From assembly GCA_013360215.1 (NCBI GenBank), contig JABWCP010000006.1, forward strand, positions 40,470-104,469: a stretch of DNA of 64,000 nt, written 5' to 3'. Position numbers and translations under genes: made by a program. Every line of letters starts with the position of its first letter. The first letter of the stretch is position 1. Below the pieces are notes generated by a model that saw nothing but the letters and a program-made list of their open reading frames with translations, did no database searches and was not told the origin of the DNA. Positions 19,040 through 38,830 of the stretch are shown in pieces. This DNA comes from a bacterium (lineage in GTDB: Bacteria > CLD3 > SB21).

Positions 19040-20359
19040 ATGAAAAAATCAGGAACGCATTTGAAAAAAATATATATGATGGCCACATGGATCATGGTGG
19101 TGTTCACTTCCGTCGCACAGGCTCAGGATTTGCCGACGCCCGCATCATCCCAAAAGCAGCCGATTCTGTTACGCAATGGTCGCGTACATGTCGGTGATGG
19201 GCGTGTGCTGGAAAAAACGGACATCCTTCTGGATAACGGTAAAATCATCGAAATTGGCCCTGGGCTTAGCAAACCTTCCACCGCACGTGAGGTGGACGCA
19301 ACGGGAAAAGAAATTTATCCCGGGTTGATTGCCTGCTATAGCACGCTCGGTTTGTCGGAGATCGAAGCGGCACGCCCGACGCGTGATGATCGGGAAGTCG
19401 GTTCGATCAATCCCAATGCGCGCGCATTGATAGCGTTTAACACCGATTCCCGTGTTATTCCTACCGTGCGCTCCAATGGCGTGCTTCTGGCGCAAATCAC
19501 GCCGCAGGGAGGCACGTTGTCGGGAACGGCTTCCGTCGTTCAGCTGGATGCATGGAACTATGAAGACGCGGTGGTTTCTGCGGACAATGGTTTGATCGTG
19601 CAGTGGCCGTCTATGTCGATCTCCAGTAGTATATTTGCGCCGCCGGCCGATGTTCAAAAGAAAAACTCGGAAAAAGCATTAAACGAGCTATTCAAAGCTT
19701 TTGAGGATGCGTATGCGTATTTTACAGCTAAAAAAACCGGTAATTCTGCCGCGCTTGATTTAAAATGGGAGTCTGTGATTCCTGTTTTTGAAAAGAAAAG
19801 ACGGGTATTCATTCGTGCCAATGATGCTAAACAAATTCAGGCGGCCGTGGCACTTTTGAAGAAATACGATATACTCGGCGCGATTATCGGCGGTTATGAT
19901 AGTTGGCGCGTCGCACCGCTCTTGAAAGAGCATAATATACCAGTTATCATCACGGATACGCATGCGATACCCGGGCGTGAAGATGAAGACTACGATCTGC
20001 GTTACAAACTGCCCAAACTCTTGCTGGATGCCGGTGTTACATTTGCCATTACCATAGACGGCAGTTGGCAACAGCGGAATTTGGCGTTTCAAGCCGGATC
20101 GGGCGTGGCTTTTGGTTTGTCTAAAGAAGAAGCGTTGACGGCTATCACTAAGTCACCGGCCGAAATTTTAGGTATAAATGATCGTATGGGTACTATAGAA
20201 AAAGGTAAAGATGCGACCTTGATCGTGGTAAGCGGTGATATTATGGACATGCGTACATCTATAGTAGAGCAGGCATTTATACAAGGCCGGGATATTGATC
20301 TTGGTAATAAACAAACCGATCTGTATCAACGGTTTAAGAAAAAGTATGATCAAAACTGA
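19040..20359 (+). CDS. Secreted amidohydrolase-family protein
   Basis: Signal peptide; amidohydrolase-like fold motifs. Lies 9 nt after the previous gene, so probably co-transcribed. Confidence 0.75.
   Translation: MKKSGTHLKKIYMMATWIMVVFTSVAQAQDLPTPASSQKQPILLRNGRVHVGDGRVLEKTDILLDNGKIIEIGPGLSKPSTAREVDATGKEIYPGLIACYSTLGLSEIEAARPTRDDREVGSINPNARALIAFNTDSRVIPTVRSNGVLLAQITPQGGTLSGTASVVQLDAWNYEDAVVSADNGLIVQWPSMSISSSIFAPPADVQKKNSEKALNELFKAFEDAYAYFTAKKTGNSAALDLKWESVIPVFEKKRRVFIRANDAKQIQAAVALLKKYDILGAIIGGYDSWRVAPLLKEHNIPVIITDTHAIPGREDEDYDLRYKLPKLLLDAGVTFAITIDGSWQQRNLAFQAGSGVAFGLSKEEALTAITKSPAEILGINDRMGTIEKGKDATLIVVSGDIMDMRTSIVEQAFIQGRDIDLGNKQTDLYQRFKKKYDQN
20279..20350. repeat. Left copy of a 72-bp direct repeat (3' end of the amidohydrolase gene); candidate attL-like boundary
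   Basis: atacaaggccgggatattgatcttggtaataaacaaaccgatctgtatcaacggtttaagaaaaagtatgat recurs at 38749..38830 with 4 mismatches. Confidence 0.6.
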
Positions 20360-20392
20360 ATATCTTGATAACAGGAGATCATTTTAATCATT

Positions 20393-20419
20393 GAAAGCGG
20401 GCCAAAGCCCGCTTTTTTT
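20393..20419 (+). terminator. Rho-independent terminator after the amidohydrolase operon
   Basis: aaagcgggccaaagcccgc hairpin followed by a T7 run. Confidence 0.6.
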
Positions 20420-20741
20420 ATAAAAAGCCTGGCTTGTAATATTTTAGTTCAAATTGGTTTCAAAAGCCACGTTATCAAGTTGATGATGGGATGTAACTAT
20501 CAAATTAATTTTATCCATTGGCGAGGATGGCTTTTTCATAAGGCGATTCATTTTGCTTCACAGAGCGAAACAGGGGACAAATACCCGGGATATCATTCAC
20601 ATGAAAATAGGGTTTGAATTGTCGAATATGGCCATGAGTTTTAGAATACAGATACGAACAAGCGAAAATTTTGGTAATTCAAATTGAAAGTTGAACTTAG
20701 GTATTGAACTTTGGGCTATCAGATGATTTCGAAATTATTTG

Positions 20742-23204
20742 TCAGTATTTTTTCTTTTTTCTTAATCTTCCGATGAAAGGGGATACGATAATAATCGCGA
20801 AAGGAATGAACAAAAAAGCGATAAACTCATACGGCACGCGGTGCAAGGGAATTGTCTCAGGGTTGCCCCAGAGCATGAGCCCCGCCCAGTAATAAGGCGA
20901 TTGTTTCAGTTCATACGCCTCATTGATATATTTTAGTTTCGCTTGCCGTAGCGCTTCTGCACGCGTAAGTCCGGATGCAATACCTTCATAAAATGCACTC
21001 ATAATCATGGCTGTTGCTTCGTCATCAATATCCCAAGCGGACATGATCAGGCTGTATGCACCAGCATACGCAAAAGCTTGATTGAAACCCATGAGCCCTT
21101 CGCCGGCGACGGGTTTGCCCAAGCCGGTGCGGCAGGCGCTTAAAACGACAAGGTCAGCATCAATACGAAAGTCATAGATGTCATACATTTTAAGAGAACT
21201 GTGATCCGAAAAAAAAATTTGTGAATACATCGGTTCGATATCGGATACGACAGCGTGAGTAGCGAAATCTATGATTTTATAATTAGCGATATGGGATATT
21301 ATTTCATTTACTGAAAGATGGTTAACCCAATATCGGCTTTTATCAAATGTGTTTGAGCTGCTAATCATCTGTTTTTCAGTGTAAGGCAGATCACTTCGTA
21401 GTGAAGATGAAGCAAATGCAAATCCAGCATAGTGGCGAGGTGCGTTTGAAAAACGACGAACGCGATCTAACCAAAAACTGGCTGATATGGCGTAAACTAT
21501 AGGATAATGTCGAAGCAAAATATCGTTAGGTTTATCTGATGAAAGTAACAATTCAAAGGGCAAACGGGTTAATGGCCCGTCTGGGACAACGATGAGTGTT
21601 TTATTTTTATCAAGAATGTCTTCAAAAGGGTGAATCAACGCATTGTATAATTTTCTGCTCGCCACTTCGTCCGTGGTTTGATTTGTACAGACAGTTTCAG
21701 CCCATCGGATTAAACTATCTTTACGGATTCCTGAAATATTTATTTTCATCGTATCGCCAGTAATAAAAAACGAAATCAACGAATCTTCACAGAGGCCGTA
21801 CTCTATTAGTTGGTAGGACTGACCCAATGCGTCCTTTAAAGCGTTCGAGGATTGATTTGTATTTTCAAATGGTGATTTCGCAGAATCCTCCAAAAAAAGT
21901 AAAGAGTCTAACAGGTGAACTCGTTCGGTATCCCATATGCGGGCCTCATGCAGAGCTATGGGATGATTTTGATATTGGCCAAAGATATTTCGAATGCGTC
22001 GATCAATTGAAGATAAACTGTCTGATAAAGCTTTCAGTGATCTATTACCGCTAAGTCGGAGCAGTTTGGATGAGTACAGTGATTTAGTATTTTCAATGAG
22101 GTTAAATGCGACTTGAGTTTTTCCTTGTCTGGCATAAAAACGCGCGGCATGTAGATAAGCAGGGACGATATTTTTAGAAATAGCAACAATGGAGATACCT
22201 TTATTTAATTCAGCCTTTTTAGTAGCTAACATGATAGAGCGACGGTACAAGCTGTCGGCTTCTTCTATTTTAGATTGTGATTCGGCCACTCTAGCTAATC
22301 CGGAACAAGCCGTCCAGTTTTCCATTAATAAATTCAATGCAGTTTTATAAGAAACAGAGGCTTTATCCCATTTGCCGATACGTTCATAATAGTATCCCAA
22401 TTCGCTGTACACGACATCTGCTTCGCTTTTCAACGTTTTTATTTCTTCAACGGATCGTAGTTGATTCTTTATTGCTTCTTCGTATTTGTTTTGTTTGTAA
22501 TACAATTCAGCGATGCCCGAATAAGCGCTTAATTTACGATCATTTGGCTGAATATGGAGCTTAGAACTCATTGCCAAAACTCGATTAAAATACTCTTCCG
22601 ATTTTCGAAACTCATTAGTTTCTCTGAAAATTCTTCCCATCTGAAGGTAGGTCGAGCTTAATTCATACTCATCATGTAGTCGCTCAAAAAAAATATTACA
22701 TGAATCAAAACAAGCTAGTGCTTCGCGGTAATTACCAAGATGAAAATTGACTAATCCTAATCGGTTAAGTGTAGAGTAATACGGATGCGGTTTCTTTTTA
22801 AACACGGAATCAGCGCGTGCAATTTTAATTGCCTCATGTAGGAGTAGTAGAGAAGAGGAATATTCGTTGAGCATCAGTTTGTAGTGCGCTTCAAAAGATA
22901 AAGCATAAACCAGCCAATCAGGATAATGTGTATTTAAAAATATCTGTTGAGACTTACGGGTAGGATCAATCGCAGAAGCATAGTCGTTAATATTTTGATA
23001 AAACACTCCTATCCGAAGATATTCAATACCGCAACGCATAGAGTCAGTTCGGTTGCTCAATGATGAAATCAAACTATCCAAAACATGCAACGCACCGCGT
23101 GGGTTGCTTTCATTCAGCATTTTTTGGATTGGCTTGAAATCTTGTGATGAAGCTTTTGTGAATACAACCAAACAATACATCACAAAATAAAGGAACTTAA
23201 TCAT
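20742..23204 (-). CDS. TPR-repeat + CHAT-domain (caspase-like) protease with signal peptide and C-terminal TM anchor
   Basis: N-terminal signal peptide; ~350 aa of TPR-like repeats. CHAT His-Cys dyad context (DFATHAVV ... LVVLSACRTGLGK); C-terminal hydrophobic helix and a KKKKY tail. Confidence 0.8.
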   Translation of the reverse strand: MIKFLYFVMYCLVVFTKASSQDFKPIQKMLNESNPRGALHVLDSLISSLSNRTDSMRCGIEYLRIGVFYQNINDYASAIDPTRKSQQIFLNTHYPDWLVYALSFEAHYKLMLNEYSSSLLLLHEAIKIARADSVFKKKPHPYYSTLNRLGLVNFHLGNYREALACFDSCNIFFERLHDEYELSSTYLQMGRIFRETNEFRKSEEYFNRVLAMSSKLHIQPNDRKLSAYSGIAELYYKQNKYEEAIKNQLRSVEEIKTLKSEADVVYSELGYYYERIGKWDKASVSYKTALNLLMENWTACSGLARVAESQSKIEEADSLYRRSIMLATKKAELNKGISIVAISKNIVPAYLHAARFYARQGKTQVAFNLIENTKSLYSSKLLRLSGNRSLKALSDSLSSIDRRIRNIFGQYQNHPIALHEARIWDTERVHLLDSLLFLEDSAKSPFENTNQSSNALKDALGQSYQLIEYGLCEDSLISFFITGDTMKINISGIRKDSLIRWAETVCTNQTTDEVASRKLYNALIHPFEDILDKNKTLIVVPDGPLTRLPFELLLSSDKPNDILLRHYPIVYAISASFWLDRVRRFSNAPRHYAGFAFASSSLRSDLPYTEKQMISSSNTFDKSRYWVNHLSVNEIISHIANYKIIDFATHAVVSDIEPMYSQIFFSDHSSLKMYDIYDFRIDADLVVLSACRTGLGKPVAGEGLMGFNQAFAYAGAYSLIMSAWDIDDEATAMIMSAFYEGIASGLTRAEALRQAKLKYINEAYELKQSPYYWAGLMLWGNPETIPLHRVPYEFIAFLFIPFAIIIVSPFIGRLRKKKKY

Positions 23205-23281
23205 AAGGAATGGCGTTTAATGTAGAAGTCTCTCTCAATTTAATTTATCGTCCTACCCATCTCAAAAAGAGGAGTGTTTGT

Positions 23282-23908
23282 ATGAAAAAGATCGCTCTCT
23301 GCGTTTCAGGCACTTTTACGCTTGCAATTATTTATGCTTTGTACGGTATTTTAGGGCCAGTTAACACAACTGACACCAATGATTCGGGCACAGCTATTCC
23401 ACCGACCGGAGGAGGTAATGATGTTCAAATATCCAATAGGCCGATCAGTGATCCTAATTCCTACCTATCCATAACTTTACCAAAAAACATTATTGCCGAC
23501 ATTTCTATCAATGTAATTAACAATGGTGACGCCGATGGTCAGCCTAATTACATCGTAATGTCTCAATATTATATGACGATGTGGGATGACGGTTTGCCGG
23601 AAGTGAAATCTCATAACGATGTGCTGACCAAAGTTCAAATTATTCGTGATAAAATATTAAAATTTAAATCACAAAACATTTTCTCCCGTTATCCAATGGG
23701 TACTGTGCTGACAGGGGATACAATTTTTGTAGAAATCGACGGTAAAGCTGTATCCCTTGGCGAACTGATACGTTTTGGGTTTTATTTTAACTCCGGCAAA
23801 ACGACGCCGTACGACGAGTATTATTGCAAAATAGGAATGAGAAATTACGGCATCAAAATCGAAGTTCGTAACAAAGGTTTCATGAAATACTTTGACAGCT
23901 CGCATTAA
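23282..23908 (+). CDS. Secreted hypothetical protein
   Basis: AGAGGAG RBS, signal-anchor, 208 aa. Divergent from the CHAT gene (78-bp spacer). Confidence 0.45.
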   Translation: MKKIALCVSGTFTLAIIYALYGILGPVNTTDTNDSGTAIPPTGGGNDVQISNRPISDPNSYLSITLPKNIIADISINVINNGDADGQPNYIVMSQYYMTMWDDGLPEVKSHNDVLTKVQIIRDKILKFKSQNIFSRYPMGTVLTGDTIFVEIDGKAVSLGELIRFGFYFNSGKTTPYDEYYCKIGMRNYGIKIEVRNKGFMKYFDSSH

Positions 23909-24090
23909 ATATAGCTTGAAACGGTTTTGTAATGTTTCAGAAAGTGCAGATTTATGTCAGGTACAGTTTTTTTACATAGATATTATTCATGATTCAATGG
24001 GTATTTACATATACCGACATATGATTTACTTGCTTTTACTTGTTCGGTATTTTCAAAAAACGTTTCATATGTTTTTTTACGAATTAAAAA

Positions 24091-24723
24091 CTATTCGCTG
24101 ATGTATTTATTTATTTGTGCTGTGAGTATTTCGACACGCAAAAAAACTTTGGAGTTGGTTGTAAGTTTACGAACTGATTCCAATGTGTTTAATGTGAGTA
24201 CTAGTTTTTCTTTATCATACCTCGGAAACAAACCCAGAGTCGTTTCTTTGGATTCAAATAACAATCGCACACCTTCTTTGAAGAGCCGGATATCCTCCGG
24301 CTCTTTTTCATTGGAACCGCGGGTCGCGGCGGGTGCTATGGCAAACTCATAATCCTTTTGAAACTGCGCCAAGCCTTGCGGCCCGTGATCGAACCGATAA
24401 TTTACATAAGCCACTAGGCCGGAATAACTCCCGACTATGATCAAAAAAATGGCTGCGGCGCGTAACCACACGGTTTTTGTCAAATTAGATTTTACAGAAG
24501 GTGTGGTTTTCTGTTGGAGCCGTGCAAAATGATTTTCCGAGGGGGTTAGTCGATCTAATCCCGTTTTACGATCCAGCATGACCTGTAATTCAGCCTGAGC
24601 ATTCGGATCCAGATCTATGCGTCGGCGAATAGATTCTTCTTTTTCCGGTGTCAAAGGAAAATGACTGCGCATCGCATAGTCGGCAATTTCCTGACGGCTG
24701 AGTTTTTCTTTTGAGTCCAGCAT
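24091..24723 (-). CDS. Putative membrane anti-sigma factor (single TM)
   Basis: Immediately downstream of the sigma-factor gene on the same strand (24-nt gap). ~95 aa cytoplasmic N-domain, one TM (LRAAAIFLIIVGSYSGLVAYV), ~95 aa periplasmic C-domain. Assignment is by context. Confidence 0.5.
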   Translation of the reverse strand: MLDSKEKLSRQEIADYAMRSHFPLTPEKEESIRRRIDLDPNAQAELQVMLDRKTGLDRLTPSENHFARLQQKTTPSVKSNLTKTVWLRAAAIFLIIVGSYSGLVAYVNYRFDHGPQGLAQFQKDYEFAIAPAATRGSNEKEPEDIRLFKEGVRLLFESKETTLGLFPRYDKEKLVLTLNTLESVRKLTTNSKVFLRVEILTAQINKYISE

Positions 24724-24747
24724 ACAATCTCTTACGGTATAGACAAT

Positions 24748-25398
24748 TTAGGGGTTCGGTTCATAACTCTCTGCATAGGCTTCGCGGATTGTATGGGAAT
24801 TGCGAAGCGCTTTGATGCCACGCGCAAAATACGCGCGTATGGTTTCCACGCTGTGTCCCATCTCCTGAGCGATCACATGATACTCTTTATCTTCCCATAT
24901 TTTTTTGTGAATAACCGTCTGTACATAGTCCGGAAGTTGGCGCATTTCTCCGGAGATGATTCTGTCAAAAAACAGTTTTACATCCAAATCATGTATCATG
25001 GACCTATCGGCTTCGTTACCGATCACTTCTGTCAGTACTTCGTTCCACTGTTCCGGATGACAAGAACGAATATAGTTGAGAAAGCGATACTTGCAGATGA
25101 CCGAAAGCCATCCCGCAAAATGCGACGGGGTATGCACATGAGCGTGTTTTTGAATGAATAAAAAATAGACTTCTTCGATAAGTTTTTCGGCATCACCGGC
25201 AGAGTGAATTTGCCCGCAAAGAAACTTGCGAAAAAAATATCTTCTCGTCCAGCAATAAACCCAAGTTTGTACCCATTCGCCGTCATTTGCTTTGCCAATC
25301 AGACGCCATTGCACAAAACGATGGTTCACCGCATCGGCATTATCTAATTGAAAATCAATGGCTTTGAGCAATGTGCCCGGCAACTGATCTGAATCCAT
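24748..25398 (-). CDS. Sigma-70 family (ECF-type) RNA polymerase sigma factor with ~65 aa N-terminal extension
   Basis: Region 2 (EEVYFLFIQKHAHVHTPSHFAGWLSVICKYRFLNYIR) and region 4 HTH (YHVIAQEMGHSVETIRAYFARGIKALR). Confidence 0.75.
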   Translation of the reverse strand: MDSDQLPGTLLKAIDFQLDNADAVNHRFVQWRLIGKANDGEWVQTWVYCWTRRYFFRKFLCGQIHSAGDAEKLIEEVYFLFIQKHAHVHTPSHFAGWLSVICKYRFLNYIRSCHPEQWNEVLTEVIGNEADRSMIHDLDVKLFFDRIISGEMRQLPDYVQTVIHKKIWEDKEYHVIAQEMGHSVETIRAYFARGIKALRNSHTIREAYAESYEPNP

Positions 25399-25669
25399 GA
25401 GGGAAAGTAGTTATGAAATAACCAAGAACGGTGTCTATATGAGTAAACAAAGTTAAACATCGGTATGGCGATGTACAAGAAAATTATTTCTTAAAAACTT
25501 TTTGTGAATTTTGTTCATAGGAAAATCGAGTATGTAATGTTTTCCGCTCTTAGAGCAATGAGTAACTGCGAAGTGTGTAATATGCTCTAAAACTTCCACT
25601 GCCAAATAACTAAGTATTTAATAATTTCGTTCTAATTGAATTGTTAAACCAAATTTAGGAGGAGATGTT

Positions 25670-26683
25670 ATGATCCGTTTTTTTATCGGCATTTTCATTT
25701 TCTTTCTTACCGCACAAGCTAGTTCTCAGAATGTTAAGCTAATAAGAAAAGGTGAGATCAAGGAACACGATATCAATTCTGCAATAACCGCAATATTTGG
25801 ATCTAAACTAGACACTGCTGTTTTGGCGATTATGGATGACGGAAATGCGATAACTTGGACGCTTGGAGGTAAATCCGTAAAACAGGGCGCAGTTCTTAAC
25901 GCCAGGGTATTTTATATCTTTGTTGCCGGTAATCGGATTATGGATGAACCGTCTGTCAATTATATCAAAAACAAATCTGCAATCGAAAATTCAGTGAATG
26001 ACATTTTGAGTTTTATTAAGCAATCAAATCGGTTCGGAATATATAGCGCCAAAAGTAACGGGGGCAACATCCCATATAAGGTATATGAAGTTTCAAATAT
26101 TAAACCCCCGGGAAACGCTGAAATAATTATAGATGTGATTCAAGATGACAACTCAAGAATGAGCAAGAAGATAACAGTTCCAATCCATGAGTTGAATTGG
26201 GCACTGCTTAAAGTCGGTGTGCAGCAGAGCAAGTTTGTCAAAAATGATTTTAGAATCAGCGAAGGTCGAATCATTGCATCACCTGATAGTGCACATCGGA
26301 AAGAATGGAAACAGCAGTTGTTCGTAGCGATTGAAGTGCATTGGCCTCGCGATCCGGAAACTTATAATCCGAACATATACAACTGGAAAAAACATAATTA
26401 TGACCGTTTGGGGTTGTTCACTGGCTTAAAATTGTCAAAAGCCCCCTTAGATGTCTTTTTTATTGGAAGTACGGTTGATCTTTTTAAAGATTTTTCTTTT
26501 GTCGGCGGTCTATCATGGAAAAAAATTTATAAAAACGAATCTGTAGCAATCGGGAATGTGTCTTCGCTTAAGACAGCCAAAAACTACCTGACCCAAAAAT
26601 ATTCTAAGCCAACGTGGTTTTGGGGCTTAGCTCTATCGCCATCTGCAATGGCAGAATCACTTGGGTTAAAAGAAAAACAATGA
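25670..26683 (+). CDS. Secreted hypothetical protein
   Basis: GGAGGAG RBS and signal peptide MIRFFIGIFIFFLTAQASSQ; 337 aa. Confidence 0.5.
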   Translation: MIRFFIGIFIFFLTAQASSQNVKLIRKGEIKEHDINSAITAIFGSKLDTAVLAIMDDGNAITWTLGGKSVKQGAVLNARVFYIFVAGNRIMDEPSVNYIKNKSAIENSVNDILSFIKQSNRFGIYSAKSNGGNIPYKVYEVSNIKPPGNAEIIIDVIQDDNSRMSKKITVPIHELNWALLKVGVQQSKFVKNDFRISEGRIIASPDSAHRKEWKQQLFVAIEVHWPRDPETYNPNIYNWKKHNYDRLGLFTGLKLSKAPLDVFFIGSTVDLFKDFSFVGGLSWKKIYKNESVAIGNVSSLKTAKNYLTQKYSKPTWFWGLALSPSAMAESLGLKEKQ

Positions 26684-26850
26684 ACGATCATCGCGCTATA
26701 TGACCGTTATGTATTTTCATTAGAATTTATTATAACTACGAAAGCCGCAAATTTTGGAGACAGAGTCTTTTCTTTTTTAGAAAAACAAATATTTCAATGT
26801 GCTTTTGGGGTTATTCATAGAAGTTAAACATCTTCAAAAGAAGGAGTTTT

Positions 26851-27374
26851 ATGAAAAAAATCATTTTTTTTTCTTGCTTCTGTGGGCTCATGATGTCTTT
26901 TCTCAGTCAGACAATTCGTCTGAAGATGAAAAGCCTTGGCTTAAAAAGCATTTCAATGTCAAGTCGGGTTGGGGATATAGATTTTGGCTGGTACGGCTTG
27001 AGGAGAGGTTTTATATTGATTTGAAAGAAAAACATCATAAGGAAATCGATGTTTTTAAACATGGAAAAATAGGAGCTCCGGGGTCTCAGATTTTGAGTAT
27101 AGATGCGTATCATGGATTTGATAAAGGCTTTCTTAGATTGGGGGTAAACGGTTCTTTAGGTCATGCCACTACCGCTGATCAAGAAGAAGAGCTACTCATA
27201 TGGACGGCAGGAGGATTTATTCAATTTGGCAGAGCAATCCGAATTGAAGGTGGCATAATAAAGGCTTTTAGTGCGGATATAGCATCGGATGGTAGGCAAG
27301 ATGATCGTGCATGCTATATAGGCCTGTCATATCCCTACGATTTGATAGATGTAATAAACGAATTTACTCAATGA
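26851..27374 (+). pseudogene. Secreted hypothetical protein gene interrupted by a frameshift in a T9 homopolymer (26864..26872)
   Basis: ATG 26851 with AAGGAG 7 nt upstream opens MKKIIFF, then shifts frame. The 191-aa ORF (26799..27374) has no ATG and no signal peptide. One extra T in the T9 run gives MKKIIFFFLLLWAHDVFSQ..., a clean signal peptide in frame with the long ORF. Confidence 0.5.
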
Positions 27375-27446
27375 AGTTTATAGTCGGGTTTTGATTTAAA
27401 CTTTCAAATTTATGCGCCGAACATTTTACGTAGCATAGATCTTCAT

Positions 27447-29215: not shown

Positions 29216-29293
29216 CAATAAGACAATGCACCGTTAACCGGAAGAATATTCTTCATCGGACTTGAACTACATAAAACATACAGGAGATAAGCA

Positions 29294-30610
29294 ATGAAGC
29301 GTATCATACCACTAATGCTGTTACTTATTATCGGAAGTAATCCCGTCAACGCTCAGATACCACAATACATCACTTTTCAGGGTGTGCTGACGGAGGCGGA
29401 CGGCAACCCCAAACCGGACGGCAATTATTCAATTGATTTCAAGATTTACGATCAACCATCCGGAGGCACTTCAAAATACAGCCAGAACGAAAGTGTTTCG
29501 ATCAGACGCGGTGTTTTTTCCGTCAAACTCGGCCCTTTGCCGGCCACGCTCCGATTTGATGTACCTTATTATCTGGGCATCACAGTATCCGGTGGCATAG
29601 AGATGTCACCGCGCATTGCGCTGAATAGCACGCCGTATAGTTTGTCATCTGTTCGAGCCGATACGGCAAAAACTACTCTGGATGGCGGCATCACTTCCGC
29701 TAAAATAGCCTCCGGTTCGATTTCTGACGGACATGTCGCTTCAGGAGCGGCTATCGCCGGTACGAAAATCACACCTAATTTTGGTTCACAAAATATCACA
29801 ACAAGCGGAAGCGTGACGGCCACATCATTTAGCGGAGATGGAAGTGCACTGACCAACGTCGGCGCAGGTAGTATTCCTGACGGCTCAATAACATCCACTA
29901 AAATATTGGACGGAACGATCACCAATGCAGATATAAACGCGACGGCAGGTATTGCGACGAGCAAGATTAGTGGTACGGTGACTTCCATCAGCGGACACGG
30001 CCTTGGGAGTCTAGCAACTAAAAATACTGTGGACTCTTCTACGATTACCGACGGCTCGATAACGAATGCAGACATACGTGCCAATGCGGGCATATCCGGA
30101 ACTAAAATCAATCCAGATTTTGGTAGTCAGAATGTGGCTACGACAGGAAATGTCACTGCAAATAGTATTCAGGGAGACGGGGGGAACCTTACAGGGTTTA
30201 TGAAAATAAGACAAATAGTTCAAGATGGTCATAGTAGTCAGGTTTCATGCAATTCAGAAGAAACAAAATCAGTTATAAGTTTATCGCTTAATGTAGGGAG
30301 CACTACAAACCATGTCTTAATTCAAATTTCAAGTGAAATTCGCGCTGATGCTGGTTCGAATATCAGGACAGGAATAATCAGACTAAAACGCAATGGAGCC
30401 ACCACCATCAAGGCCCAGGAAATAACAACATATGCTGTTCCGTTTAAGACGCCATTTTCAATGTCATATGTTGATTCACCTAATTCAAGTTCTTTGGTTA
30501 CTTACGAACTTGAAGTGTCAACTGTTGGAAGCTCACCATTGGTTTTGAATTTTAATAGTGGATCATTCCTAAATGGTATAACAATGACTTTAATGGAAAT
30601 CGCGCCTTGA
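29294..30610 (+). CDS. Secreted Ser/Thr/Gly-rich protein with ~60-aa periodic repeats and a distinct C-terminal domain
   Basis: Signal peptide; at least three repeat units of the pattern ITxAxIxxGxI...GTKIxPxFGSQNxxTxGxVTAxSxxGDGxxLT. Confidence 0.55.
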   Translation: MKRIIPLMLLLIIGSNPVNAQIPQYITFQGVLTEADGNPKPDGNYSIDFKIYDQPSGGTSKYSQNESVSIRRGVFSVKLGPLPATLRFDVPYYLGITVSGGIEMSPRIALNSTPYSLSSVRADTAKTTLDGGITSAKIASGSISDGHVASGAAIAGTKITPNFGSQNITTSGSVTATSFSGDGSALTNVGAGSIPDGSITSTKILDGTITNADINATAGIATSKISGTVTSISGHGLGSLATKNTVDSSTITDGSITNADIRANAGISGTKINPDFGSQNVATTGNVTANSIQGDGGNLTGFMKIRQIVQDGHSSQVSCNSEETKSVISLSLNVGSTTNHVLIQISSEIRADAGSNIRTGIIRLKRNGATTIKAQEITTYAVPFKTPFSMSYVDSPNSSSLVTYELEVSTVGSSPLVLNFNSGSFLNGITMTLMEIAP

Positions 30611-30646
30611 AATTAACGTTATCAATAAATCGTACAAATCTTCAAA

Positions 30647-30946
30647 GTGGAGGAAATTAAAATGGAATTTCATGATTTAAATCTTGAAGAAATAGAAAAT
30701 CTAACAAAAGACGAGTTAAGAATTGCTTCATTGGAAATGGATTCAGAAATCAATGACTTGGAAGTGTTACTTGTTTCCACAACAATCACAACGAATTTCT
30801 GCTCATTGTATCGCCCAAAAATGCGTAAGACCCTTAAGAGAATTCTTAATATTATATCCCATCCTATACTCAAGGCTATAATTGGAAGCAAGCCATCCAA
30901 AGCATTAAAAAAAATAATCGAAATTCTTGACAAGGTTTGTCCATAA
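30647..30946 (+). CDS. Hypothetical small protein in AT-rich spacer (doubtful)
   Basis: 99-aa ORF, very AT-rich, no convincing RBS. Confidence 0.2.
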   Translation: MEEIKMEFHDLNLEEIENLTKDELRIASLEMDSEINDLEVLLVSTTITTNFCSLYRPKMRKTLKRILNIISHPILKAIIGSKPSKALKKIIEILDKVCP

Positions 30947-31256
30947 ATATTATGGTTAAAAAAGAACAATGTTCTGATTCAATTGATAAGAATCTGCAGT
31001 CGATAAGAATAACTGAATCCGAACTTAATTATAAGAAGTTTTATTTTTAATTTATTTTTTTCCAAATAGCGGCCTTGTATAGCAGTATCGCATTTGAGCA
31101 ACACTTTTTCTGGACGTGCATGATGTAAACGACGATCTAAATTAAAAATTCAATGATACCGATATGTCTTCGAACTCCATTTTGCCTTGCTCGATTGGTT
31201 TGATTTTGACTTACGCTTAGTATGTCAATTGTCTTCAATAAATCATAGGTATTCTC

Positions 31257-33692
31257 ATGAAAAAAATCATTCTCATATCATTATTATTTGCACAAAATTG
31301 GAATCCTATTTATTCTCAAGAACAAATTTTACTACCTTCGTTCACGTCAGGATTTGATAAACCATCGGGTTCTGGAGCGGTGATCTCGGCATCCATCGGT
31401 GTGATCGCTGCCGATACCAGTACGGGTTCGGGCGTTTCACTGGGCGGAGGATTTTTCGGTTATACGATCAATACGGTGCCGCCGACACGCGTTGCTAATT
31501 TTACCGCCAATCCGGTAGATACCACACAAGTGACACTGGCATGGCAAGCAAGTATAGGGGACACGTCAAGTTTTCGTTATTTCATATATCGCGGCGCTAC
31601 GCGTACCGGCGCTTATCAGCGTGTGGATTCGACGATCAGAACGCAACTGAATATCAATGATATAGGTCGTGTACGCAAAACAGTGTACTTTTATTACGTG
31701 ACTGCAAAAAATCGTTGGGGTACTTCTTACACATCAGACACGGCACAGGTCACGACCTACGGCGAACCCGATACGCCTTCCAGCTTTACGGCACAATTGG
31801 AGTCAGGCAAAGTCAATCGCATCCAGATGACATGGTCAGCTTCAGATTTTGACCCGTCGCAGTATAAAATCTACAGATCAAACCAAGCAACAACCGGTTT
31901 TGTTGCTATAGATTCTGTCCATAGCGGTACTTTAGTATTCACCGATAGCACACTGCAATTGGGTGCGACATACTACTACAATGTTCGGGCAAAGAATAGT
32001 TGGGGAGAGTCGGCACCCACCATCACGCGCAATGTTACATCCGGAAATCTGACGCTGGCCTATTCCGGTACACCGCCTACCAATGTCACAGAAAATCAAT
32101 CAGCGCTCGTACAGGCTACGATCAATGCGGATCGGGGCAATGGGGATATCGTGAAGCTGTATTATAAGGCCGGCGGCGCGGCTTCTTATTCGGATTCGGC
32201 AGATATGAATTATTCCGGAGGCGTATATTCATATTCGATTCCGTGGAATAAGATTGCTTCGCGCGGTGCCGTTTATTTTGTTCGTGCTCGTGTGGGTAAT
32301 TCAAACCAATCGGAATCTGAAAAACATATCACCGCTGCTATAACTTCCGGTGTGACCAAAAGTAATAGTCAGCCTGTAGCAGTAGCCAAAAAACATGACC
32401 TATCCAAATTTGAAATTATCTCCATTCCTCTCGACATCACCGGCGCAAAAGATGTGAATACAGTGCTTGGATCAATTTTTGGAGAAAAGGGCAAAGAGTG
32501 GGAAATATGGAACTATAGCAGCGGCAATCAGATTTTTACCGGTAATATTGCTTCCGGAAAAGGGTATTGGTTCATTACGACCAAAGAGGGTTCGCTTAAA
32601 ACCGGCGCGGCCAAAACTTTTACTACCGAAACGCCATACACTGTGAGCGTACAGTCAGGATGGAATATTATCGGCAATCCGTTCCATTTCGACGTTTCGA
32701 CGTCGGATATTATTCCCTCTTCCGGAGTCTCTATTGAAAATTCTAAATTCTACACTTGGGGCGTCAACAAAGATTGGCAGGAAGTAAGTTCGATCAAACC
32801 GTGGTTCGGTTACTACGTAAAAGTCATCGGCAATGGGAATTTGCTTATTTATCCTAAAGCGGCCGGGAGTGTTTCTAAACCTCTTATGAGAAGCGTTGCA
32901 TCGGATTTTGACAAAGGCGAATGGTTGATCAATATTCAAGCCGTAAGCGAAGAAATCGCAGATAAACATAATTTTATCGGTGCGCTTTCCCATGCGGATG
33001 ATGCCGTGGATGAAGAAGATTATTACGATACACCGTTACCGCCGGGCGATCAGCGTCTGCACCTCTATTTTCCGCATAAGGATTGGGGATCGAAGTCTGA
33101 TGACTACGGGATCGATATGCGCCGCGTATCGGAGGAAGGCCATACGTGGGATTTTGAAGTGTCAACGAATATCACGCGTTCTCATATAGTGATCGGCGAG
33201 CCGGTGAATCTGCCGGAAAATTTCAGTGTGCGCGTTATGGATACGGATTTGCGTGTAATGTACGATGCGAAGCAACAAAAAGAAATTCCTGTAATCCTGA
33301 CTTCCAAAACGAGCGACGCGCGACATTATAAAGTGCTCGTAGGAACGGAAGCATATATCAATGCGCACGATATGGGTTTTTTGGGCTTGCCTACAGGATT
33401 CGAATTAAATCAAAACTATCCCAATCCCTTTAATCCGACAACGACAATCAAGTTTGCGCTTCCCGTTGCATCAAAAATTGAAATTACGATTTATAATGCT
33501 TTAGGTCAGGTGGTGCGTAAGCTTGCAGATCGCGAGTATGCGGCGGGGTATCAGTTCGCCCAATGGGACGGAAAAGACAATCGTGGAAGCATGGCGGCGT
33601 CCGGAGTGTACATCTACCGTCTGACCGCACGCAGTTTAGACGGTTCAGGTAAAAGTTTTACGAAATCCCAAAAGATGCTGCTGATGAAGTGA
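31257..33692 (+). CDS. Secreted fibronectin-type-III repeat protein with T9SS (Por) C-terminal sorting domain
   Basis: Signal peptide; FN3-like modules (W/Y/T pattern: LAWQAS...YFYYVTAKN; MTWSAS...YYYNVRAKN). C-terminal NQNYPNPFNPTTTIKFALP...IYNALGQVV...GVYIYRL is a typical T9SS CTD. Confidence 0.75.
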   Translation: MKKIILISLLFAQNWNPIYSQEQILLPSFTSGFDKPSGSGAVISASIGVIAADTSTGSGVSLGGGFFGYTINTVPPTRVANFTANPVDTTQVTLAWQASIGDTSSFRYFIYRGATRTGAYQRVDSTIRTQLNINDIGRVRKTVYFYYVTAKNRWGTSYTSDTAQVTTYGEPDTPSSFTAQLESGKVNRIQMTWSASDFDPSQYKIYRSNQATTGFVAIDSVHSGTLVFTDSTLQLGATYYYNVRAKNSWGESAPTITRNVTSGNLTLAYSGTPPTNVTENQSALVQATINADRGNGDIVKLYYKAGGAASYSDSADMNYSGGVYSYSIPWNKIASRGAVYFVRARVGNSNQSESEKHITAAITSGVTKSNSQPVAVAKKHDLSKFEIISIPLDITGAKDVNTVLGSIFGEKGKEWEIWNYSSGNQIFTGNIASGKGYWFITTKEGSLKTGAAKTFTTETPYTVSVQSGWNIIGNPFHFDVSTSDIIPSSGVSIENSKFYTWGVNKDWQEVSSIKPWFGYYVKVIGNGNLLIYPKAAGSVSKPLMRSVASDFDKGEWLINIQAVSEEIADKHNFIGALSHADDAVDEEDYYDTPLPPGDQRLHLYFPHKDWGSKSDDYGIDMRRVSEEGHTWDFEVSTNITRSHIVIGEPVNLPENFSVRVMDTDLRVMYDAKQQKEIPVILTSKTSDARHYKVLVGTEAYINAHDMGFLGLPTGFELNQNYPNPFNPTTTIKFALPVASKIEITIYNALGQVVRKLADREYAAGYQFAQWDGKDNRGSMAASGVYIYRLTARSLDGSGKSFTKSQKMLLMK

Positions 33693-34148
33693 ATCAATTT
33701 TTGTTCAGCGATAAGCTTTGGACGGAAGATAGATGCTTTGATCATAAACGATACAAAATACCGGAATACTCGCGTGCGCGAAAATCTATACGGATAAACA
33801 TGATTGATACAACCTAGTATGGGCACCGGCTTTGACAGTTGAAATTTCCTCTATCGAGCATTCTAGGGCAAAACCAAGTGACTATTGCATAATAGAGTTT
33901 ATTTAAACTATGTTTAACCATTATGCTCCAAAATTTACCGTGTATGCTACGGGAAGCGGTGTTGGTGTCTTGTGTATATACATTAATTTTAACTCCTCGT
34001 CACTGCAATAATGCTGTAGTGTCGAGGTGTCGTGAGTGATCGATTCTCTTTAGCACGCCTTAGAGTGTTCTTCTTTTTCTAAAAAATATTTCGCGCTGGA
34101 AAAAATAGCAAGTGTGATACTTTTTAAGGGCCTCAAAAATATCAGTCC

Positions 34149-37100
34149 ATGATACACAACACGTTAATGCTATTCCGGTTATATTTTTTTTATTTGCTCT
34201 TAACAGGTTATCTATCGCAAATATGCGCACAGCCTGAAGCATATCATGTAGATAAGATCGGCCGTGAACACGGCCTTTTGCAAAACAGGGTAACGTGTCT
34301 TTTGCAAAGTCGCGACGGTCGGATATGGATCGGAACCCGTGAAGGGTTGCATTGTTACGATGGCTCACTAATGAAGTTGTACCTCTCGGATTCTCTGGCC
34401 GCATCACTATCGAGTAATTACATAACAGCGATTGCCGAAGACAGTCTGGAAAGTATATGGGTCGGCACCGAACGTGGCTTAAATCGTATAAATCGTTACT
34501 CCGGGGAGGTTTCCCGTCATCCGGTGATTACGGAAGATCAGCATTCAGTTTCAGATGGTCGCGTAACAAGTCTTTTTACTGATGCTCGCGGGCGTTTATG
34601 GGTCGGGACTTTGCAGGGCTTATTTCGGTTTTCGGAAAATGGCTTTATATCCTATCCACTAAAATGGCCAGACAAAACGGATTCGACGATATTGTTTCCT
34701 GTACGTGTCATGTATCAGCCGCTTCATAATCCGGATGAACTCTGGATCGGCACTACCGGACTAGGTATGCTCGTAATGGATATGGACAAAGGTGTTTATA
34801 CACGCGTAGCTGCGGTGACTACCCGCGCACCGACTGCTGATATTTCGACTGTATGGTCTATCTATAGTCAGGGAGACTCCGTCGTGTGGATGGGCACCCC
34901 CAATGGTCTTATCCGATGGGGGCGAACTTATAATCAATGGCGTTCATACCAGCCGCAAAAAACAGATCGGTATAGTATCAATGATTTACGCATACGATGT
35001 GTAACGACTGCCGATGCCTCGGGCTTATGGATCGGTACATCGAACGGAGGGTTAAATTATTTCGACATGGTTTCGGAACGTTTTTATCATATAGGCAATG
35101 ATCCCGATAATGCTGTTTTTTTTCGTGATTATGTCAATGCTTTAATCAAAACTTCTGACGGTACATTATGGGTCGGAACGCATGCTCATGAACTATATAA
35201 AATATCGAAAACGGCGATACAGTATAAGCATTATGCCACCAAAGACGGATTACCGCACGATATGGTGCGCTGCTTTTGGGAAGACATAGACAGCGCCGTC
35301 TGGGTAGGGACAGAAAATGGCGTAGCACGATGGGCCGAAGGCCAATTCAGCGTATTCCCGGTTGCTATGAGTAACTTACAAATACGGATGATCTACCGGG
35401 ATCGTAGGCAAAACTTATGGATCGGTTCCCGATTAGGAGGTATTTGGCGGCAAGATGCGAACAAAACGATAAGGCGATTTGTACAAAATAAAAATTTGCT
35501 CGGCTCGCTTTCGGGAAATCGCGTTTACACCTGTTACGAAGATACGCTGTCAGATGTACTGTGGGTAGGTACTTATAAAGGTGGATTAAACCGTTTTGAT
35601 TATAGCAGCGCACGCTTTGAACTCTACCGGTATGATTCATCACGATTTGGAAATTCTAATTACGAATTTGTCAATGCCATTGCTTTACAATCGGATTCCA
35701 TCGTGTGGCTGGGTACACGGCATCACGGATTGATTCGTTTCGATGTGCGCCGACGGCAGTTTCGTTATTTTTCCGGAGAACGTTATGGCGCCGAAGACAA
35801 TCATGTATATGGATTGTGCATTGATCGAAAAGGGTATTTATGGGTTGCGACCGGTAAAGGGCTTCAGCGATGGGACATGCAAAATCTGACACCCACGGTA
35901 TTTACCGTTAAGGACGGTTTGGCTAATGATATGGTGTATTCAGTGCAGGAAGATTTGCACGGTCGGATTTGGCTTACCAATAACAATGGTCTGACGGTGC
36001 TGCGTTGGGGTGATGAAAATCAAAAGCCATCGGTTACTAATTTTTCCGGCGGTAAAGATTTGCCTATACGTCAGTTCGAGCCCGGGTCGGGCTTCAGAAA
36101 AAAAGACGGTACTTTACTTTTTGGAGGCGTCGAAGGGTTTATTCATGTATTCCCGGAGAGCGTTGAAAAAAAAGATAATCTTCTTAGGCCCTATCTTACA
36201 CGGTTTGAAGTTTTTCAGGAAGCGTGGCCATTGGATACCGTGATAGATCGAAAAACGGCGATCGTACTCCCGTATGATAAAAATTTTTTTACTTTTCAGT
36301 TCTCAGCCATCGGGTTTCAGCGTTCCGATGAGTTGGAGTTTGAATATCTATTGGAAGGTTTAGATCGCCATTGGGTGACTGTACACCGAGGTCAGCGAGA
36401 TGTATCTTATGCCAATATTCGATCAGGCGAGTATTTCTTTACATTGCGGGCCAAGCTTGACGGTGCAATCGTGGGCATGCCCGCACGAATAAAGGTTATC
36501 GTTCAAACCGCATGGTGGGATACCATACTTTTTCGTCTATCTATAATTGTGATCGTTTTGATTTCCGGAGCCGGCATATTCCGAATGCAATCAAAGCGCA
36601 TGCATAAGAGAAACAAAGAACTCAGGGAATTATCCAATCATCTTGTGCAAGCCCGTGAATCCGAAAGGCTCAAAATAGCCCGCGAAATTCACGATGAATT
36701 AGGGCAGAGCCTTGCGGTGATGAAAATCGAAGCATCCGTGGTTGATGATGACCATACTTCCATAATACATCTGATCGACGAGGCCGCTCGAAAGGTCCAG
36801 TCTATTGCACTGGAACTTCGTCCGGCTATTTTAGACGACATCGGTTTATCGGCAGCAATAGCGGCGCATATGCGGGATATTATCTTAAAAACGAATATCC
36901 ATTGGCGGTTGGATATAAATGATGTAGAAGCATCCGACTTGGCTAATATTACGGCGTTCAGGATTTTCCAGGAGTGCGTGACCAATATCCTGCGCCATTC
37001 CAACGCCACCGAAGCTTCCGTAACGCTGAGTCAAACGCAAGGTAAACTATTTTTAACCGTCGATGATAACGGATCGGGAATCGATGAAATACATCTTACG

Positions 37101-37235
37101 AGCAGTAAATCAATCGGCCTGATCGGCATGCGTGAGCGTATCCGTGCTGTCGGCGGTCATATTTTTATCAAAACGGCTGTCGGACAGGGAACCCATATCC
37201 GTGTTGAACTGCCATCAGAACCCGTGGAGTCATGA
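34149..37235 (+). CDS. Sensor histidine kinase with periplasmic beta-propeller (Reg_prop/Y_Y_Y-type) sensor, HisKA_3 and HATPase domains
   Basis: Signal peptide; many WVGT/WIGT propeller repeats; TM before ERLKIAREIHDELGQSL H-box (NarX-type); HATPase motifs DDNGSGI and GLIGMRER. Confidence 0.85.
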   Translation: MIHNTLMLFRLYFFYLLLTGYLSQICAQPEAYHVDKIGREHGLLQNRVTCLLQSRDGRIWIGTREGLHCYDGSLMKLYLSDSLAASLSSNYITAIAEDSLESIWVGTERGLNRINRYSGEVSRHPVITEDQHSVSDGRVTSLFTDARGRLWVGTLQGLFRFSENGFISYPLKWPDKTDSTILFPVRVMYQPLHNPDELWIGTTGLGMLVMDMDKGVYTRVAAVTTRAPTADISTVWSIYSQGDSVVWMGTPNGLIRWGRTYNQWRSYQPQKTDRYSINDLRIRCVTTADASGLWIGTSNGGLNYFDMVSERFYHIGNDPDNAVFFRDYVNALIKTSDGTLWVGTHAHELYKISKTAIQYKHYATKDGLPHDMVRCFWEDIDSAVWVGTENGVARWAEGQFSVFPVAMSNLQIRMIYRDRRQNLWIGSRLGGIWRQDANKTIRRFVQNKNLLGSLSGNRVYTCYEDTLSDVLWVGTYKGGLNRFDYSSARFELYRYDSSRFGNSNYEFVNAIALQSDSIVWLGTRHHGLIRFDVRRRQFRYFSGERYGAEDNHVYGLCIDRKGYLWVATGKGLQRWDMQNLTPTVFTVKDGLANDMVYSVQEDLHGRIWLTNNNGLTVLRWGDENQKPSVTNFSGGKDLPIRQFEPGSGFRKKDGTLLFGGVEGFIHVFPESVEKKDNLLRPYLTRFEVFQEAWPLDTVIDRKTAIVLPYDKNFFTFQFSAIGFQRSDELEFEYLLEGLDRHWVTVHRGQRDVSYANIRSGEYFFTLRAKLDGAIVGMPARIKVIVQTAWWDTILFRLSIIVIVLISGAGIFRMQSKRMHKRNKELRELSNHLVQARESERLKIAREIHDELGQSLAVMKIEASVVDDDHTSIIHLIDEAARKVQSIALELRPAILDDIGLSAAIAAHMRDIILKTNIHWRLDINDVEASDLANITAFRIFQECVTNILRHSNATEASVTLSQTQGKLFLTVDDNGSGIDEIHLTSSKSIGLIGMRERIRAVGGHIFIKTAVGQGTHIRVELPSEPVES

Positions 37236-37236
37236 T

Positions 37237-37857
37237 ATGTATGTGCTTATTGTAGATGATCATGCCGTTGTACGCTTTGGCGTTGAAAAAATATTGAGCG
37301 CCGAATTTAAAGAAGTACGTATTGACGAAGCATCCGACGGAGAAAAAGCTTTGGAGCTATTCAGAATTTCGGATTATGATCTTATTTTGCTTGATATGGC
37401 TCTACCCGGGCGCAATGGGTTTGATGTCCTTCGGCATATTAAGACTGAAAAACCGGATCAGCGTGTTTTGGTATTATCTATGCAGACACAGGAGGAGTAT
37501 GCCTTACGCGTGCTCAAGGCCGGTGCAAACGCTTTTGTCTGTAAGACATCACTGACGGATGAACTTATTGTAGCCATACATCGTGTAATGCGAGGCGGTA
37601 GATTTGTCTCCGCACCTATTGCCGAAGCCGTGACTGTATCATTTGGAACGGATGAGGTTATACACCGAAAACTCTCTCAGCGCGAATTTCAGGTGTTGTG
37701 CCTGATCGGTGGCGGGAAAACGGTAACTGAGATAGCGGACGAATTGTGCATCAGTGTAAAAACGGTCAGCACCTTACGTGAGCGCTTATTGAAAAAACTA
37801 GGACTGAATACCACGGCTGAAATCATACGTTATGCGATCGAGAATAAATTTGTCTGA
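37237..37857 (+). CDS. Response regulator, NarL/LuxR family
   Basis: MYVLIVDDH receiver; C-terminal LuxR HTH (LSQREFQVLCLIGGGKTVTEIADELCISVKTV). ATG lies 1 nt after the kinase stop codon. Confidence 0.85.
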   Translation: MYVLIVDDHAVVRFGVEKILSAEFKEVRIDEASDGEKALELFRISDYDLILLDMALPGRNGFDVLRHIKTEKPDQRVLVLSMQTQEEYALRVLKAGANAFVCKTSLTDELIVAIHRVMRGGRFVSAPIAEAVTVSFGTDEVIHRKLSQREFQVLCLIGGGKTVTEIADELCISVKTVSTLRERLLKKLGLNTTAEIIRYAIENKFV

Positions 37858-38011
37858 TTGATCTTTCCGCCTTTGTTTGCGATCATCAAATAGCTCTTAC
37901 CTGCAATGCTTAAAGAATGATGGCTTTAAATTCGTAGCGCCTACAGATTTTGATCAATTTCAGGTTTAATCCACGTCATTGATGACCTATCTATTTCTCC
38001 GGCAAAAAACA

Positions 38012-38055
38012 TGTAGGACAAACCCCGACAACAAAATCAGAGTTTGTCCTACATA
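38012..38055. other. Perfect 13-bp inverted repeat (hairpin) without a U-tail
   Basis: atgtaggacaaac-N18-gtttgtcctacat, ~155 bp downstream of the LuxR regulator gene. Confidence 0.4.
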
Positions 38056-38307
38056 CAAACCTATGCGCTTTTGTTATCTTATAGCATATTTAAATCATCC
38101 GATTTCCTAATCTCAGTTTAAGACAGGTGACTTTTGGCTGATCGTGAAATCAGAGAACGCTATGTCATACGTTTGTTGATTATTATTTTTACAGCGGCTT
38201 TGCTGATAATGATATATCTGCTTGTAAGGCTTTAGATTTGAAGAAAAATCCGAACACAACATGACGGATAAAATGAATATACAGGCGAACGAAAAGGTGG
38301 AATTGAA

Positions 38308-38628
38308 GTGAAAAACGAGAAATACGATACAACAAGAGAATTTGTAACGACGTTGAGCGAAATAATAGCTCAACCGGGTCATCATGTACTGGATAAAATT
38401 GTTTCCATTTGTTCACGATTAAGGGGTACGTACGTACCATCGGCAAAGTACGTTCTTCGCCAGAGCGCCATTCATCGTGTGATTGATTTGCACCATCAGG
38501 GCAAGTCGGTTCGTGAAATTACCGCTTCCGTTGGTTTAAAAAAATCTACCGTTTATAAAATTCTCAAAGAGCATCACTTCAATGTGTGCACCCTCAAAAA
38601 ACGAAACGCGGGAACTGTAACTGCATAG
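38308..38628 (+). CDS. Small HTH DNA-binding protein, paralog B (GTG start)
   Basis: 106 aa; GLKKSTVYKILK HTH; paralog of 28055..28360. AAGGTGG RBS upstream of GTG. Confidence 0.55.
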   Translation: MKNEKYDTTREFVTTLSEIIAQPGHHVLDKIVSICSRLRGTYVPSAKYVLRQSAIHRVIDLHHQGKSVREITASVGLKKSTVYKILKEHHFNVCTLKKRNAGTVTA

Positions 38629-38748
38629 TAGGAAAGTAGTTCAATCCGACCGATTAGATTCTGAACCGAATTTTTTAAATTATGGCGACTCTGTTTTTAT
38701 TCTGGTAACATTCGGCACTAATATCATTCTACAGCAAGTACCTATCAT

Positions 38749-38830
38749 ATACAAGGCCGGGATATTAATCTTGATAATAAACAAACCGATCTATATCAAA
38801 GGTTTAAGAAAAAGTATGATTAGTGCCTAA
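38749..38830. repeat. Right copy of the 72-bp direct repeat (remnant of amidohydrolase 3' end); candidate attR-like boundary
   Basis: 68/72 identical to 20279..20350 (roughly 94%). Followed by a diverged terminator-like hairpin at 38861..38890. Confidence 0.6.

Follow-up and report, generated by a model that had tools for sequence, protein, structure and literature searches.

An integrase-less, strain-variable 18.5-kb segment bracketed by a diverged amidohydrolase gene-end repeat

The window (the whole 64-kb stretch of DNA analysed here) comes from an uncultured Bacteroidota-like bacterium or species complex and carries on its forward strand the amidohydrolase gene amidoB (19040-20359; 439 amino acids (aa); Pfam Amidohydro_1/3), a core gene whose 3' end is repeated further downstream. 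In some strains amidoB is followed by an accessory block of 18.5 kb, which close relatives do not have; BLAST breakpoints place this strain-variable segment at 20422-38892 (18,471 nucleotides (nt)), missing in the related contigs L084, L087, and L086. Beyond it lie the core genes of the right flank, a cluster of multihaem cytochromes at 39081-43655, also on the forward strand (Pfam; gene maps of L084, L087, and L093). On balance we favor the view that the segment is an old strain-variable island, which began as an integrative element, now resembles a cis-mobilizable element (CIME), and sits at a recombination hotspot.

A repeat search of the window finds the end of amidoB twice in direct orientation, at 20278-20350 and 38748-38820 (73 nt each, start-to-start spacing 18470), with 69 of 73 nt identical; it is one of merely three long direct-repeat families within the 64 kb and thus lies far beyond chance. 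The preliminary description of this DNA had reported an amidohydrolase 3'-end repeat with four mismatches, and both the block and the mismatches are there, except that its right end, put at 38830, overshot the true end at 38820 by 10 nt. The left copy comprises the last 24 codons of amidoB minus the terminal QN*; the right copy, on the same strand, is an orphan amidoB 3' fragment ending in KKKYD*, outside any open reading frame (ORF). Translated in frame with amidoB, two of the four mismatches are silent and two alter the amino acid, the right copy ending in ...IQGRDINLDNKQTDLYQRFKKKYD* and amidoB in ...IQGRDIDLGNKQTDLYQRFKKKYDQN*. The left edge of the repeat is sharp, with an in-register identity upstream of 0.33-0.375 (vs 0.26 for random sequence); to the right of the block the copies continue collinearly at weaker similarity, with 48% identity in the spacer, 70% in the terminator, and 55% in the following ~45 nt, for a full repeat of ~190 nt (20278-20464 and 38748-38941). 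The similarity is limited to these ~190 nt, and the repeat is not part of a larger segmental duplication, a possibility that had been named beforehand.

Each copy is followed by a hairpin with a T-run, as had been noticed: the intrinsic terminator of amidoB at 20393-20421 (-16.4 kcal/mol, z = -4.4) and the terminator of the right copy at 38862-38892 (-11.5 kcal/mol, z = -3.2), both on the forward strand and at near-equal distance from the respective block (43 vs 44 nt). A 12-nt terminator core, CGCTTTTTTTAT, at 20410-20421, is common to both copies; in the right copy the core reads CGCTTTTTTTTAT (38880-38892), and the sequence thereafter is 98% identical to that of strains without the segment. 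The first ~45 nt of the insert weakly resemble the host sequence 3' of the right copy. The left copies of the two clades of strains introduced below are 96, 86, 100, and 88% identical to each other in block, spacer, terminator, and downstream sequence; the uneven 95/48/70/55% profile between the left and right copies of the window thus differs from the neutral decay of a once-identical duplication. An inverted repeat of 17 nt (38706-38722 and 38819-38835, 82% complementary) also flanks the right 73-nt copy, and may be a product of chance in AT-rich DNA.

For comparison, related contigs were drawn from the 98%-identity protein cluster of amidoB, with 13 variants, in a large protein collection. 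They fall into two clades between which amidoB is ~93% identical: clade I, with the window, L084, and L087, and clade II, with L085, whose contig ends 10 kb into the island, and L086. Three contigs from the two clades (L084, L087, and L086) have an empty site, in which amidoB is followed after ~250 nt by the gene of a 449-aa cytochrome; the direct succession of amidohydrolase and cytochrome genes, proposed earlier as a check, is thus found. In BLAST comparisons, positions 1-11388 of L084 correspond to window positions 9040-20426, and positions 11239-21317 to 38748-48827, the overlap between the two matches being due to the repeat, of which the empty sites have a single copy. Occupied sites are found in four lineages (the window, L085, L100, and L101), all with the identical left junction and one with different cargo. 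The left junction recurs at 100% identity in independent assemblies, including one contig of 52 kb, and at least 13 independent assemblies of 50-200 kb from different samples read across the right junction; because so many independent assemblies cross the junctions, the structure is a real polymorphism and not an artefact.

The position of the junction was mapped in an alignment of six sequences. All three empty sites are of the left-copy type from the 73-nt block through the QN* stop and the spacer to the terminator stem, and all three change to the right flank at the identical junction, within CGCTTTTTTTAT, ~60 nt downstream of the 73-nt block. The empty site thus consists of the left copy through 20421 and the flank of the right copy from 38893, the two repeat copies being reciprocal hybrids relative to it, and the diverged spacer and terminator of the right copy are missing from the empty sites. 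In the empty site of clade II, bases specific to this clade stand on both sides of the junction, directly on its right and within ~35 nt on its left, so that this site was not recently imported from clade I. The preliminary description had seen in the locus a genomic island whose attL and attR repeats reconstitute the gene end: the att-like repeats and the empty sites are borne out, but the 73-nt copies are not the breakpoints of the empty sites, and the classical reconstitution of a gene end by the element is not confirmed.

In age, the island appears comparable to the lineages that carry it. Genes shared between the islands of the window and L085 (the C-terminal part of a CHAT protease-like protein, a sigma/anti-sigma pair, and a CsgG-like gene) are 89-93% identical at the nucleotide level, and the flanks 92-96%; since the island genes have diverged roughly like the flanks, the island is about as old as the clade split. 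Compared to the clade-mates with an empty site, the window has single-nucleotide polymorphisms at a flat density of ~1% up to both junctions; that its strain recently acquired the island from a diverged donor is rejected on this ground. L100 and L101 are mosaics of clades I and II across amidoB, with clade-I switch points at 20297-20358 and 20161-20176, and carry, on a clade-II-like amidoB body, island sequence near-identical to that of the window (1 difference in 580 nt). These mosaics demonstrate that homologous recombination in the flanking amidoB now moves the island from one background to another, and, since amidoB is mosaic in both lineages, that recombination across the divide of ~93% identity is frequent. 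Within amidoB, the region 18420-20421 of the two lineages is made up of clade-I and clade-II tracts of a few hundred nt each.

Inside the island, a second, smaller indel is nested. An insert of 2.2 kb (25460-27680, forward strand), which encodes two secreted proteins and is missing in L085, lies between two copies of a 220-nt repeat that are uniformly 93% identical and whose sequence is unrelated to the 73-nt repeat. The left copy (25238-25459, forward strand) covers the 5' end of the sigma factor gene and its upstream region, and the right copy (27681-27891, forward strand) consists of a truncated version of this 5' end plus promoter and has lost 11 nt by deletion. In L085 the repeat occurs once, its left side as in the left copy and its right side as in the flank of the right copy. 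The nested indel and the island as a whole therefore have the same geometry, a native copy, an insert, a diverged and truncated copy, and the native flank. Lookups of the sigma and 337-aa (hyp337) proteins among close strains give matches solely on contigs that break at the repeats.

The two proteins of the nested insert are encoded at 25670-26683 (337 aa) and 26799-27374 (191 aa), the latter frameshifted at a tract of nine T (T9; 26864-26872), where a well-placed ATG with AAGGAG upstream and a canonical signal peptide are out of frame with the 191-aa ORF (26851-26884). A tract of ten or seven T would restore a secreted protein of 174 aa; an independent assembly, encountered in 15 samples, likewise has T9. 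The frameshift may represent the OFF state of a phase-variable gene, or a pseudogene.

The island is mosaic in composition. Between 20.4 and 32 kb, its guanine-cytosine (GC) content is 0.37-0.42, vs 0.45, with a tetranucleotide z of up to 7.5 vs the rest of the window; between 32 and 38 kb, where its large secreted cargo protein, sensor kinase, and response regulator are encoded, GC content is 0.45 and z at most 2.2, indistinguishable from background. The left 11.5 kb are thus compositionally foreign. The segment had been called AT-rich, and a deviation from the flanks had been expected; this holds for its left two thirds, but not for the right third, which is host-like.

The cargo is made up of genes for the envelope, for secretion, and for regulation, and the gene list given previously is confirmed by Pfam, with additions. 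The first gene, on the reverse strand (20742-23204), encodes a CHAT protease-like protein of 820 aa with tetratricopeptide repeats (TPR; Pfam CHAT 3.5e-51), for which no relative beyond its own cluster exceeds 35% identity. Compared to its counterpart in L085 (11662-14127), the C-terminal 145 aa are 87% identical, the N-terminal TPR part 31%, and the sequences suggest a domain-level replacement of the N-terminal part between island variants; the scaffold of L085 has a gap at the transition. It is followed on the forward strand by a membrane-anchored or secreted protein of 232 aa (23210-23908), with a hydrophobic internal N-terminus and no family matches, and on the reverse strand (24091-25398) by an anti-sigma factor (24091-24723; weak anti-sigma match) and a sigma factor of the extracytoplasmic function (ECF) type (24748-25398; NCBIfam TIGR02985, 1.7e-15); the two protein identities between this pair and that of L085 are 94% and 76%.

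The remaining genes are on the forward strand. Beyond the nested insert lies the gene of a small helix-turn-helix (HTH) protein of 101 aa (28055-28360; generic weak HTH matches), 59% identical to its paralog HTH106 at the right end of the island, and then a group (28598-30946) of a CsgG/LpoB-like lipoprotein (28598-29215; Pfam CsgG 1.1e-8), a secreted fibre- or adhesin-like repeat protein (29294-30610; phrog_2012 minor tail protein, 6.9e-15), and an ORF of 99 aa, with signal peptides present in the group. A protein of 811 aa with fn3, FlgD_ig, and Por_Secre_tail domains (31257-33692) is predicted to be secreted by the type IX secretion system (T9SS); at its position L085 has a different T9SS protein, of 1932 aa. 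A β-propeller/Y_Y_Y sensor histidine kinase and a LuxR-type response regulator (34149-37857; Pfam) are host-like in composition. The last gene of the island encodes HTH106 (38308-38628; 106 aa), which is not a recombinase and whose family, among 5.8 billion proteins, consists of HTH106 and the paralog cluster alone. With the CHAT N-terminus and the T9SS cargo replaced between the islands of the window and L085, and the 2.2-kb insertion nested in one of them, the cargo is turned over piecemeal.

Outside the island, amidoB is the second gene of an amidoA-amidoB pair, which is kept in 79 of 80 distant Bacteroidota loci; the pair (1007 and 439 aa; 16007-20359) is stable there in variable surroundings. 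Among species-representative genomes, the best match to amidoB reaches 55% identity, and at none of the 80 loci is either flank syntenic. On the right side, a palindromic motif, TTATGACAATT[A/G]TCATAGGG, occurs just twice in the window (38974-39007 and 40627-40660), both times ~55-95 nt upstream of genes of the multihaem cytochrome cluster (39081 and 40697), and is probably an operator common to these genes. At the far left, the window start cuts a gene for an angiotensin-converting-enzyme-like peptidase M2 (19-978; Pfam 1.2e-78), a family uncommon in bacteria.

How could this arrangement have arisen? In the reading we favor, an integrative element would have entered by one reciprocal recombination in the region of the amidoB 3' end, leaving the diverged direct repeat behind as attL and attR; its integration module would later have been lost, or its recombinase always supplied in trans. 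Since then, the cargo has been exchanged piece by piece, and at present the island spreads via homologous recombination in the amidoB flank. We infer a site-specific origin, for which the crossover could have been placed in one of two ways. In the first, option (a), it would have occurred at the terminator core CGCTTTTTTTAT, with the right copy borne by the element; this explains the empty sites directly, including those of both clades, but not the higher conservation of the 73-nt block. In the second, option (b), it would have occurred in the 73-nt block, as in the prophage e14 at icd, so that the spacer and terminator of the left copy would stem from the element, with the host's own gene end preserved as the right copy; this explains the anatomy of the repeat, but requires that the empty sites be deletion scars between the terminators, formed before the clade split or twice.

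Several observations weigh against such an origin. No integrase, excisionase, transposase, or other recombinase, intact or as a remnant, turns up in the island, whether among its proteins (Pfam, NCBIfam, PHROGs, and PADLOC) or in five intergenic gaps (six-frame Pfam scan), nor anywhere in the rest of the window. The absence of these enzymes from the island, remarked upon from the start, thus persists under profile searches. The gene end of the right-copy type, KKKYD* (437 aa), which would be predicted for a pristine attB, is present in none of the 13 cluster variants, the gene ends of the empty sites differing from what the classical model predicts. A circular junction (38892 to 20422) is seen in none of the 16 contigs that carry the terminal HTH gene, nor in any assembly. 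None of the 42 distant relatives with at least 5 kb of downstream sequence has a duplicated amidoB 3' end, and none of the 80 distant loci shows the gene end a second time, so that no element family is known to target amidoB. Neither the cargo nor the terminal HTH protein is seen outside this lineage, and no transfer to another host or site is documented. Finally, because the two repeats are unrelated in sequence, one site-specific recombinase cannot explain both the island and the nested indel.

The searches for other signs of mobility gave the following. The island has no conjugation genes and no known defence systems by the same four resources, and the 64-kb window no transfer RNA gene. The unannotated island proteins that are large enough for recombinases all begin with a signal peptide or membrane anchor. 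A cryptic recombinase in HTH106 was considered, in line with the earlier suggestion to look for distant recombinase folds, and rejected: its predicted structure (predicted local distance difference test score 66.6) has insignificant resemblance alone, with Mu Mor/C and Fis as top fold matches in the PDB at E ≥ 0.36. A transposon or insertion sequence is likewise rejected, as there is no transposase, the island ends have no transposon-like terminal inverted repeats, and the flanking repeat is 73-190 nt long. A scan of metagenome_contigs for a donor lineage with a 45-mer of the repeat core came back empty, in a collection that also lacks the Joint Genome Institute (JGI) contig of L085.

The main rival to an integrative origin, which we consider doubtful yet deserving of serious weight, dispenses with the recombinase. 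By this account the island arose by insertion-duplication, either in a Campbell-type crossover of circular DNA with a short homology to the end of amidoB or by replication template switching, both of which leave the homologous tract in duplicate, once on each side of the insert, in a generic process that also made the nested 2.2-kb insert; no mobile element would have been involved, and the locus would be a hotspot only. The reciprocally hybrid copies fit this account, as does the nested indel, which reaches the same geometry with an unrelated, uniformly 93% identical repeat of 220 nt, and the lack of any recombinase in the window favors it too. The locus also undergoes rampant homologous recombination, and many hotspots are without mobile elements and show recombination in their flanks (PMC5635113). 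On the other side, ~190 nt at ~70% identity serve RecA-type recombination poorly as a substrate, the junction lies in 12 nt of identity within the poorly conserved part of the repeat and not in the block of 95%, where a homologous crossover would be expected, and the 95/48/70/55% profile is not that of neutral decay but matches a known integrase system.

A more speculative possibility, for which we see an outside chance, is that the island belongs to an undescribed kind of integrative element, whose trans-encoded recombinase would act at the T-run of a terminator, with the 73-nt gene end as its landmark and a copy of this landmark borne by the element. Such an element would explain why the 73-nt block is conserved at 95% amid diverged surroundings, and also the clean empty sites with clade-specific flanks in both clades. 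In a related reading, an insertion-duplication primed by homology, without a recombinase, occurred twice, one within the other.

That the right copy is instead the remnant of a paralog, i.e. of a second amidoB copy or a duplicated gene-end segment that was mostly deleted, with the cargo native and the empty sites formed by deletion between the copies, is improbable. The collinear similarity over ~190 nt, with a block-terminator spacing of 43 vs 44 nt, the host-like composition of the right third, and an island as old as the clade split could all be accommodated in this way; yet no residual protein or nucleotide similarity is found upstream of 38748, an intact HTH gene ends just 120 nt away, the left 11.5 kb are foreign in composition, and the distant relatives have no tandem amidoB duplicate downstream. 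A deletion between the copies should, moreover, cross over in the 73-nt block, whereas all three empty sites cross at the T-run. Least credible of all, and hardly worth entertaining, is an assembly artefact in which the island was joined via the repeats in a mixed-strain metagenome: the window does come from a metagenome-assembled genome, and short-read assemblies break at both repeat pairs, but independent assemblies reproduce the left junction at 100% identity, at least 13 contigs of 50-200 kb contain the right one, and the left junction is shared by the diverged L085, L100, and L101.

An integrative element that entered next to amidoB and has since lost its means of integration, or never carried them, is thus the origin we prefer. 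With junctions mapped to the base pair and both allelic states present in two clades, the locus offers a case of variation in surface and regulatory genes at a fixed site without a resident recombinase, and indicates that flank recombination alone suffices to carry an established island from one background to another. For the prediction of islands it carries a caution, in that a gene-end repeat resembling a textbook attL/attR pair need not mark the breakpoint of the empty site. The biological payoff is modest, unless a recombinase that targets terminators exists.

Among known systems, the closest in repeat anatomy is the cryptic prophage e14 (and phage 21) at icd. In Escherichia coli K-12, e14 starts 165 nt before the end of icd, is followed after its right end by the 165-nt pseudogene icdC, and contains intE and xisE; the two icd copies share 92.7% identity, 11 of their 12 differences falling on third codon positions, and the repeat has a sharp left edge (0.25 identity upstream) and unrelated sequence after the stop codon (54% gapped identity). 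Both systems have a direct repeat of a gene 3' end around an insert of ~15-18 kb, with a coding block of 92.7% over 165 nt in e14 and 95% over 73 nt here, a sharp left edge, essentially unrelated sequence after the stop codon, and a right copy that is an orphan fragment; the repeat profile of the island thus matches that of the attL-attR pair of e14 and icd. Unlike e14, with its intE and xisE, the island has no recombinase, and its cargo is not phage-like except for the one fibre-like protein. The e14 model moreover has the prophage supply the left copy, leaving the gene end of the right copy at the empty site, whereas the empty sites here are of the left-copy type and break at the T-run.

Insertion by a terminator is familiar from Tn7, which at attTn7 inserts in or next to the terminator downstream of glmS, using the 3' coding end of glmS as a landmark and leaving the gene intact. 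The island resembles it in lying by the terminator of a conserved, undisrupted gene, but lacks Tns genes, terminal inverted repeats, and a 5-bp target duplication, and Tn7, unlike the island, carries no copy of the end of its target gene.

A further comparison is with CIMEs, i.e. decayed ICE or IME elements, such as the ICESt1-related islands of Streptococcus thermophilus, which sit at the fda 3' end. The att site of ICESt1, an integrative and conjugative element (ICE), is 27 bp long; the repeat here is longer and far less uniform. For the present lineage, we know of no cognate ICE or integrative and mobilizable element (IME) with the same att specificity. CIMEs are elements that have kept their att-type repeats and lost the genes for integration and transfer (PMC5704250). 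Like them, the island has att repeats at the 3' end of a protein gene and no integration or transfer genes, varies between strains, and has cargo altered by deletion and accretion; unlike in CIMEs, the junction of the empty site lies outside the best-conserved block. The segment is, in sum, an integrase-less, CIME-like island, real but fairly ordinary among genomic islands. Hotspots that lack mobile elements and show recombination in the flanking core genes have also been described (Oliveira et al. 2017, PMC5635113), and the locus shares with them a gene cluster between core genes, the absence of mobile-element genes, a mosaic cargo, and flank recombination. A bracket formed by a duplicated gene end is, however, not expected at such sites; because the repeat of the amidoB end brackets the island, it points to a discrete founding recombination event.

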